Source: Escherichia coli
Lineage (GTDB): Bacteria > Pseudomonadota > Gammaproteobacteria > Enterobacterales > Enterobacteriaceae
DNA length: 64,000 bases
Assembly: GCF_003018255.1 (NCBI RefSeq)
Contig: NZ_CP027440.1
Strand: one strand, 5' to 3'
This document shows positions 46,350 to 47,100 of the stretch, in pieces. Within the stretch, counting starts at the first letter, position 1. Every line of letters starts with the position of its first letter. Under the pieces are notes generated by a model, which ran no database searches, was not told the DNA's origin, and worked only from the letters and a program-made list of their open reading frames with translations. Position numbers and translations under genes: made by a program.

Positions 46350-46706
46350 TTAACGCCGCTGATATTCCGCCATTCCCGCTTTGCAGTCCACGCTGACCTG
46401 GTAATGAATATCGGCACTTTTACCACGTACGGTTAGCGGTACTGACCATTTATCATCTTTCCCCTGAATGTCCTGCAAACTGACCCATGCCACGGGATCG
46501 GGCTGACCGACAATTTTTTGATCATCAGCCCAGCGCGCCACGCGATTTTGTTGGTAATCACGTTTTACGCTCGCGGCAATTCCGGCAGCATCCAGACCTT
46601 CACACTTTGGGAAAGTGACCGACTTGCTGGTTTCATTATTGGCAGCGAAAACTGATGCGCAGGCAGAAACCAACAACAGCCCTAAAAACGCCCCTCTTTT
46701 TTTCAT
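46350..46706 (-). CDS. yebF: Secreted protein YebF, 118 aa
   Basis: Internal ATG ([21 protein letters not shown] signal peptide) of ORF 46350..46718. Confidence 0.92.
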
Positions 46707-46772
46707 GTTTTTCTCCATAGCACAATGATTCAGGAGAAAGCATGGTACAAATTGTCAGGAGCGCAAGTTGCT

Positions 46773-47063
46773 TCAGGCCGCGTGTGAGGCATCTTCCTCT
46801 TCGGATTCAGCACCGACGACCTGTGGGGACGGTAATTTGCCGGTTTTCAGAATGGTGCTCAGCACATCTTTTTGTTCTGCCAGCCATAGCGAAAGGGCTT
46901 CACGTTGCTCGTCTTCCATTTGCACTGGAGAATTTGTCAGCCAGGTGTCAAGCAGATCCGCCGTATCAAGCATTTTGTCATAAGCATCGGCTTCCTTTTT
47001 GCTGGTAAACGACATTTTCTCTTCGCCCTCACGAATGACTACGTATTTAACTTCAACCGCCAT
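46773..47063 (-). CDS. yebG: SOS-inducible DNA-damage protein YebG, 96 aa
   Basis: ORF 46773..47063 minus; LexA box immediately upstream. Confidence 0.93.
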   Translation of the reverse strand: MAVEVKYVVIREGEEKMSFTSKKEADAYDKMLDTADLLDTWLTNSPVQMEDEQREALSLWLAEQKDVLSTILKTGKLPSPQVVGAESEEEDASHAA

Positions 47064-47080
47064 TTGCAGCCTCTCATAAT

Positions 47081-47100
47081 AACTGTGATTTTATACAGTA
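47081..47100. promoter_or_regulatory. LexA (SOS) box in yebG promoter
   Basis: aaCTGTgattttatACAGta, the CTGT-N8-ACAG palindrome, 18 bp upstream of yebG start. Confidence 0.8.

Follow-up and report, generated by a model that had tools for sequence, protein, structure and literature searches.

The LexA operator of yebG in Escherichia coli and the reach of its transcript into yebF and yebE

A strong LexA operator of the SOS (DNA damage) response lies just upstream of yebG in the stretch of Escherichia coli DNA analysed here, a window of 64,000 nucleotides from contig NZ_CP027440.1, and the genes yebF and yebE follow yebG on the same strand. The sequence at 47081-47100 is the yebG operator of E. 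coli K-12 and shows every testable property of a gammaproteobacterial LexA operator. The best explanation of the locus, in which considerable confidence is placed, is that this operator controls the yebG promoter, that yebG and yebF form a bicistronic unit and that most transcripts end before yebE. Read-through of the yebG transcript into yebF, and weakly into yebE, is already published and known.

The LexA operator and the promoter of yebG

The elements that carry this explanation are the following:

47081-47100, minus strand: LexA (SOS) operator of yebG, reading AACTGTGATTTTATACAGTA on the plus strand and TACTGTATAAAATCACAGTT on the gene strand, with the core CTGT-N8-ACAG at 47083-47098
47120-47125, minus strand: yebG -35 hexamer TTGATT, from a consensus scan (TTGATT-17-TATACT)
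47097-47102, minus strand: yebG -10 hexamer TATACT, from the same scan, overlapping the operator by 4 nt
47092, minus strand: start of the yebG/yebF transcript, inside the operator, with a leader of 29 nt (K-12 position 1930776; PMC6131387, Supplementary Data 2)
46773-47063, minus strand: yebG, 96 amino acids, DNA-damage-inducible protein (Pfam YebG, E=4e-34)
46707-46772, minus strand: yebG-yebF spacer, 66 bp, without a terminator and with a conserved motif linked to yebF
46350-46706, minus strand: yebF, 118 amino acids, secreted protein (Pfam YebF, E=8e-44)
45364-46023, minus strand: yebE, 219 amino acids, inner-membrane protein of the DUF533/TerB family (Pfam DUF533, E=2e-44)

The bare core CTGT-N8-ACAG occurs twice in the window against 0.68 expected, and 18 of 100 shuffled sequences reach two. 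As this count is not significant, a position weight matrix was used instead, built from the 17 other E. coli boxes printed in Thomassen 2010 (PMC3009722) with the yebG box left out. The operator scores 20.4 bits, the second best position in the window, which is inside the range of the training sites (13.0-28.4 bits) and above everything found in 30 shuffles (maximum 19.25, mean 12.5). It matches the palindromic 20-bp gammaproteobacterial LexA consensus TACTGTATATATATACAGTA, and it is identical to the K-12 sequence and to the yebG box in Table 4 of PMC3009722. The best score in the window, 21.0 bits, belongs to a member of the training set, the box TGCTGGATAGATATCCAGCG at 62344-62363, already known as the SOS box of ruvAB and placed 48 bp upstream of ruvA (61685-62296, minus strand). 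A first-pass annotation of the stretch had described a strong operator 18 bp upstream of yebG; the strength and the upstream position are borne out, and the distance to the ATG is 17 nt (47064-47080), a trivial difference. The SOS promoter and operator of yebG were reportedly described by Lomba in 1997, by Fernandez de Henestrosa in 2000 and by Courcelle in 2001.

A scan with the YebG alignment, taking one genome per species, gave 80 orthologous Enterobacteriaceae loci (L003-L082), and in all 80 a LexA box scoring 16.9-29 bits lies 12-19 bp upstream of yebG. From the yebG stop to the yebE start none of these loci has a second LexA-like box, the best score there being 7.3 bits. Saturation mutagenesis by Sort-Seq has confirmed both the LexA and the RNA polymerase sites of yebG, together with induction by mitomycin C (Belliveau 2018, PMC6003448). 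The chance that the LexA-like sequence is a functionless palindrome is therefore practically negligible: the unexceptional count of bare cores would allow it, but the full 20-mer outscores every shuffle, sits on the -10 hexamer and the transcript start, is conserved throughout the orthologous loci and has been validated by experiment (PMC3009722, PMC6003448), and the published mutagenesis and lexA-mutant data refute the idea.

The TTGATT/TATACT pair found by the consensus scan is the same as that at a peak for RpoD in systematic evolution of ligands by exponential enrichment (SELEX; Shimada 2014), and the arrangement TTGnnn-17-TATACT followed by the box is conserved between yebG and purT in many genera (79 distinct intergenic sequences). 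Published K-12 coordinates were converted by subtracting 1883684. This offset is valid because it places the purT start, K-12 1930856, at 47172 of the window, 6 nt after the purT -10 hexamer. The operator thus covers the end of the -10 hexamer and the published start, a position that excludes the polymerase.

LexA bound at 47081-47100 overlies the start at 47092 as well as the final 4 nt of the -10 hexamer and thereby blocks RNA polymerase, and after DNA damage the RecA-stimulated self-cleavage of LexA frees the promoter. The transcript then crosses the terminator-free 66-bp spacer, so that yebF is SOS-induced as the second gene. Most transcripts would end in the 326-bp spacer that follows yebF, a minority reaching yebE. 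Two hairpins of repetitive extragenic palindromic (REP) sequences at 46239-46322 may serve there as 3'-end barriers, and a C-rich stretch at 46153-46232 may load Rho. For its part, yebE would be expressed chiefly from a CpxR-dependent promoter of its own directly before the gene, and may respond to damage indirectly through the SOS-induced TisB and envelope stress.

Co-transcription of yebG and yebF and the weaker coupling of yebE

The pair yebG-yebF has the sequence properties expected of co-transcribed genes, namely the same strand, a spacer of 66 bp and no terminator. Neither a consensus scan nor a looser hairpin-plus-U scan of the minus strand found an intrinsic terminator in 46707-46772, and the fold of this spacer is no better than that of shuffles (z=-0.07). 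Applied from the yebG stop to the yebE start, the two scans likewise found none in the spacers; the only minus-strand candidates are weak and lie inside the yebF coding sequence. The spacer lengths of 66 and 326 bp, the orientation and nature of yebF (secreted) and yebE (DUF533), as seen in the Pfam matches and the annotation, and the lack of a clear terminator between yebF and yebE all agree with what the first-pass annotation had reported.

Full-length capped transcripts have been sequenced in K-12 by single-molecule real-time (SMRT) Cappable-seq, and the operon b1848|b1847 (yebG|yebF) from K-12 1930776 is listed as one such transcript class, with neither a yebG-only class nor a yebG-yebF-yebE class (yebE being b1846; Yan 2018, PMC6131387). 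On tiling arrays one UV-induced transcript touches yebG and yebF downstream of this box (Thomassen 2010, PMC3009722). Quantitative reverse-transcription PCR in lexA(Def) and lexA3(Ind-) strains in the same study found yebF to be fully and yebE only partially controlled by LexA, and yebE was still UV-induced in lexA(Def); the supplements of that study hold no yeb entries. Courcelle 2001, as cited in PMC3009722, is given as finding both yebF and yebE UV-induced. In a ciprofloxacin time course yebF mRNA rose by log2 3.44 against 4.06 for yebG, and in a dam mutant the changes were +2.34 and +2.19 respectively. For Salmonella it has been stated that yebF and yebE are 'co-induced ... through transcriptional read-through' (Merida-Floriano 2021, PMC8072944). 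The first-pass annotation had left read-through into yebF and yebE as an open question, which the published data answer: the transcript runs on into yebF, which is under full LexA control, and only weakly into yebE, which is under partial control (PMC3009722, PMC6131387). It had also named a strong terminator within 46707-46772, together with no damage induction of yebF and yebE, as the outcome that would speak against it; the spacer holds no such terminator and both genes respond to damage.

The partial control of yebE by LexA may be viewed beside what is known of its own regulation. The gene has been described as CpxR-regulated with its own promoter, which has been used as a Cpx reporter, and a plasmid fusion of the yebE promoter to green fluorescent protein is inducible by copper. 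The SOS toxin TisB induces yebE, and deletion of yebE delays recovery from TisB; By way of TisB and Cpx, DNA damage could thus reach yebE indirectly. Upstream of yebE there is one candidate site:

46096-46110, minus strand: CpxR-box-like direct repeat TTTGC-N5-TTTTG, TTTGCGCATCTTTTG, the reverse of GTAAA-N5-GTAAA with 3 mismatches

No match to the CpxR consensus with at most 2 mismatches was found in the yebF-yebE spacer, and about 2.9 matches with 3 mismatches would be expected there by chance. The block TTTGC-N5-TTT(T/A)G is, however, common to all of the genera upstream of yebE, with or without yebF, and it is only because of this conservation that 46096-46110 is accepted as CpxR-like. Nearer to the gene, two further blocks, (C/T)TGACA and TAnnCT, are conserved at 46040-46075 on the minus strand, just 11 nt apart. 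A sigma-E reading of the region (GCATCTT...TCTGA) was rejected, the spacing being 18 nt rather than 16 and Cpx control being published.

The two spacers and the competing explanations

The yebF-yebE spacer (46024-46349, untranslated) contains three elements of interest:

46289-46322, minus strand: REP-like unit 1, GGCGGATACGGCGCGAGTGCCTTGTCCGCCCTAC, an imperfect hairpin with its tail motif at 46289-46302
46239-46274, plus strand: REP-like unit 2, inverted, with its tail motif at 46261-46274
46153-46232, minus strand: candidate Rho loading (Rho utilization, rut) region, 80 nt with 25 C and 4 G, untranslated

The consensus used for the REP tail was ...CTTATC(C/A)GGCCTAC. Five tail motifs occur in the window against 0.38 expected, a number reached by none of 100 shuffles, and two of them are in this spacer. 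The arms of unit 1 (46293-46304 and 46311-46322) are 83% complementary and the hairpin is present in the predicted fold; no U runs follow the REP hairpins. The two units lie tail to tail on opposite strands, and the pair has the sequence features of a putative bacterial interspersed mosaic element (BIME). The first-pass annotation had noted a REP element here, which was correct if understated. Just past the pair and before the yebE promoter region, the stretch 46153-46232 has a (C+1)/(G+1) ratio of 5.2. Among the 80-nt windows of both strands this value falls at the 99.998th percentile, the most extreme in the 64 kb. Only Escherichia loci have this long spacer with its REP-like units and C-over-G stretch, the spacer in Citrobacter, Salmonella and Kosakonia being about 94 bp. 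We infer that the yebF-yebE spacer may attenuate transcription with the help of Rho, and the weak coupling of yebE would then be accounted for. The first-pass annotation missed both this attenuator-like spacer and the CpxR-regulated promoter of yebE.

A different kind of element came from the cross-genus alignment of the yebG-yebF spacers:

46742-46766, minus strand: two-block motif, TTGCGC (46761-46766), N13, TACCAT (46742-46747), then GCTTT

The wider form of the motif across genera is TTGC[AG]C-N13-TACCA(T/G)(G/A)CTTT. The sequence TTGC[AG]C-N13-TACCA occurs in the spacer of 55 of the 56 loci that contain yebF and in none of the 24 that lack it; apart from these, both strands of 569 kb gave one match. 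Its blocks are 13 nt apart, against 16-18 for a sigma-70 promoter, and the alternative TTGCGC-16-CATGCT agrees at 3+3 of 12 consensus positions. The consensus scan found no promoter-like site in this spacer, and the published RpoD and minor-sigma SELEX lists have no peak there. Promoters of sigma-32, CTTGAAA-N13-15-CCCCAT, have a spacing similar to that of the motif, and a resemblance to OmpR sites was considered as a further idea. A literature search on RpoH and yebF found nothing, and a sigma-54 reading was rejected for want of GG-N10-GC. Nor was a conserved RNA structure found, as RNAalifold over 26 genera predicts no pairs in the spacer; a helix between the conserved CAUGCUUU and AAAGCAUG, around the start of yebF, showed 84.6% pairing, where slid controls gave 34-56%, but came without compensatory change and was not adopted.

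Expression in Salmonella Typhimurium bears on this motif. In uninduced cells yebF stands at 369 transcripts per million (TPM) against 28.5 TPM for yebG, a 13-fold excess, and nalidixic acid raises yebG 41-fold, yebF 2.1-fold and yebE 2.7-fold (gains of 1182, 412 and 164 TPM respectively). Since basal yebF so far exceeds yebG, yebF must have an independent promoter in that organism, for which the motif is the only conserved candidate. For K-12, the listing of Yan 2018 has no start for yebF alone, and the fold changes of yebF equal those of yebG. The motif is a candidate for a LexA-independent yebF promoter or regulatory site with a geometry other than that of sigma-70.

Three other explanations of the locus deserve weighing against the bicistronic one. 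A single, fully coupled tricistronic SOS operon yebG-yebF-yebE, in which the REP sequences just stabilise the upstream mRNA and transcription is not truly attenuated ahead of yebE, would account for three co-oriented genes with no intrinsic terminator between them, for the order yebG-(yebF)-yebE-ptrB kept across Enterobacteriaceae, for the UV response of yebF and yebE attributed to Courcelle 2001 and for the Salmonella read-through into both genes (PMC8072944). It is quite improbable nonetheless, because SMRT-Cappable-seq lists yebG|yebF only (PMC6131387), yebE is partly LexA-controlled and still UV-induced in lexA(Def) (PMC3009722), the gain of yebE in Salmonella is about 14% of the TPM increment of yebG, and yebE is preceded by a 326-nt untranslated spacer with an extreme C-over-G stretch and by a conserved, Cpx-regulated promoter region of its own. 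That UV induction in lexA(Def), together with the CpxR-like repeat conserved upstream of yebE, the response of the promoter fusion to Cpx activation by copper, the induction of yebE by TisB and the slow recovery from TisB after its deletion, would instead suit a damage response of yebE, and perhaps of part of yebF, that is indirect, running from TisB or envelope damage through CpxAR to the yebE promoter. As tisB is itself LexA-controlled, such a route to yebE would also look LexA-dependent. As a full account it is unlikely: it fails for yebF, which is fully LexA-dependent and lies on the yebG transcript, and for yebE it is compatible with some read-through and so not exclusive. That yebF is mainly independent, with its own LexA-independent promoter at TTGCGC-N13-TACCAT and only minor read-through from yebG, has a somewhat better though still doubtful standing. 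The near-perfect association of the motif with yebF and the Salmonella expression values argue for it, but the 13-nt spacing is unlike the sigma-70 consensus, the promoter scan is empty at the motif, and neither RpoD nor any minor sigma factor has a SELEX peak in the spacer.

The bicistronic explanation with attenuation before yebE has its own difficulties, and these concern three of its parts. At the promoter, counted from the published start the -10 hexamer occupies -10 to -5, a little nearer than is normal, and Sort-Seq shifted the RNA polymerase site by 9 bp relative to an older annotation; the exact hexamers therefore rest on conservation and the consensus scan. As regards the operon, the name 'yebGFE operon' has been used for the locus (PMC10604247), which also speaks for the tricistronic reading. 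The attenuator has more against it. Both REP units are degenerate, with 2 mismatches each in the tail motif; the one Rfam match, to the REP-derived naRNA4 at 46292-46368, is below threshold (25.6 bits against 59.5); and dependence on Rho is suggested by base composition only. No mapped sense-strand 3' end was found in the yebF-yebE spacer, and the accessible part of the Adams 2021 Term-seq supplements gives none for yebG, yebF or yebE, possibly owing to low expression of the operon in undamaged cells. Salmonella, moreover, lacks the REP and C-over-G insert and yet induces yebE just 2.7-fold, so that weak coupling there is independent of the Escherichia insert. The joint proposal that the motif is an unannotated yebF element and that the Escherichia insert of REP units and C-over-G stretch is a Rho-dependent attenuator uncoupling yebE is accordingly advanced as tentative, its chances being a little short of even.

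Related loci, neighbouring features and significance

The region 45300-47250 belongs to the E. coli chromosome. Strain JNE23-011 matches it with 100% identity, and 5,425 of the 5,426 complete genomes of the species carry it. The RefSeq annotation places ptrB, yebE, yebF and yebG on one strand, with purT divergent and eda next, and the layout in K-12 MG1655 is the same. The operator, the -10 hexamer, the leader, the whole of yebG, the yebG-yebF spacer and the first ~100 bp of yebF are base for base those of K-12, so that the locus is that of the K-12 yebG (b1848) SOS promoter and operator with no functional difference in the window. Substitutions relative to K-12 occur in the yebG-purT intergenic region at 47109, 47113, 47117, 47131, 47144 and 47178, with others in yebF and in the yebF-yebE spacer.

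It was also observed that the run free of differences from K-12 extends over 511 bp (46598-47108), from the 5' third of yebF through the -10 hexamer. The flanking 6 kb diverge from K-12 by 2.3%, and at a uniform rate about 0.001 such runs would be expected. Among the 5,425 genomes, yebG with its spacer (357 bp) is at least 99% identical in 5,386, and yebF, of the same length, in only 1,187. Conservation of YebG between species is not unusual, with 91% amino-acid identity to E. albertii.

In the 80 orthologous loci purT is divergent from yebG and the order is yebG-(yebF)-yebE-ptrB. The gene yebF is absent from 24 of them, which include Klebsiella, Raoultella, most Buttiauxella, Intestinirhabdus and some Cedecea and Enterobacter:

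Loci without yebF: L026, L034, L052, L055-L057, L059-L066, L068, L069, L072-L074, L076, L077, L079, L080, L082

The yebG-yebE gap is 45-151 bp in most of these and hence too short to hide a yebF; the exception is the Erwinia locus L077, with a gap of 1,067 bp. Unlike in Escherichia, a plausible terminator after yebG is frequent where yebF is missing, hairpin-plus-U structures of -14 to -18.5 kcal/mol being found in several such loci (L052, L056, L074, L068, L026). Elsewhere it is yebE that is missing or truncated, for example in E. albertii (L005), Kosakonia (L037, L044, L047) and Dryocola (L067). Salmonella enterica shares the gene order, a LexA box 17 bp from the ATG and the spacer motif (PMC8072944), but its yebF-yebE spacer is ~93 bp, without REP units and without a C-over-G stretch, and its basal yebF is far above yebG.

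Partial read-through is familiar from other SOS units, namely recA-recX (where it is attenuated), lexA-dinF and dinB-yafNOP. As in those, a single LexA operator lies at the first gene and the lesser induction downstream is due to read-through. The present locus differs in that the proposed attenuation would come from a REP pair and a rut-like stretch rather than an intrinsic hairpin, and in that the last gene has its own Cpx stress promoter. Attenuation associated with BIME or REP sequences between co-oriented genes is said to have been described by Espeli et al. in 2001 in J Mol Biol. As in those systems, an inverted REP pair lies here between co-oriented genes and a C-rich untranslated stretch that may load Rho comes after it; the present units, however, are degenerate, and an effect of theirs on transcription would be a predicted one.

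The other features of the locus are these:

47013-47015, minus strand: internal in-frame start M17 of yebG, codon position read from the sequence, preceded by a GAGG-like Shine-Dalgarno sequence
47137-47172, plus strand: purT promoter AAGACA-18-TATACT, with the published start at 47172
47144-47159, plus strand: PurR box GCGCAAACGTTTTCGT, between the purT -35 and -10 hexamers
47197-48375, plus strand: purT, from the annotation

Two YebG proteoforms, starting at M1 and M17, are known in both E. coli and Salmonella from tagging and from ribosome profiling (PMC11005335). An RNA 3' end antisense to yebG is given at K-12 1930523 on the plus strand, about 46839 in the window (Adams 2021, supplementary file 2); the consensus scan found no plus-strand promoter upstream of it. 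The purT and yebG promoters stand back to back with 11 bp between their -35 hexamers, an arrangement already known, and repression of purT by PurR has been shown by Sort-Seq (PMC6003448). For yebF, the open reading frame list also gives an upstream ATG at 46718, but the annotation and the alignment favour 46706. The YebF sequence matches its own nuclear magnetic resonance structure (PDB 2LQV, E=1e-60), and a weak match to the colicin M immunity protein (4AEQ, 2XGL; E about 0.009) links this secreted protein, itself induced in the SOS response, to a colicin immunity protein.

As yebG is a textbook member of the SOS regulon, with its operator and promoter dissected by mutagenesis and read-through already measured by arrays, by quantitative PCR in lexA mutants and by single-molecule RNA sequencing, the finding itself adds little. 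Its value is that of a positive control, in which a real operator and operon layout were recognised from the letters of the DNA. Possibly new are the yebF-linked motif, the lack of yebF in many genera and the 511-bp stretch without a difference from K-12. The functions of YebG, YebF and YebE are poorly defined to date, and the motif, the patchy occurrence of yebF and the rut-like insert could serve work on YebF secretion and on the Cpx and SOS responses. If the motif drives yebF, the gene would combine SOS read-through with another stress signal, and if the spacer is an attenuator, it would have arisen to keep SOS transcription out of the Cpx-controlled yebE. These side observations suggest how one locus may join the inputs of DNA damage and envelope stress.

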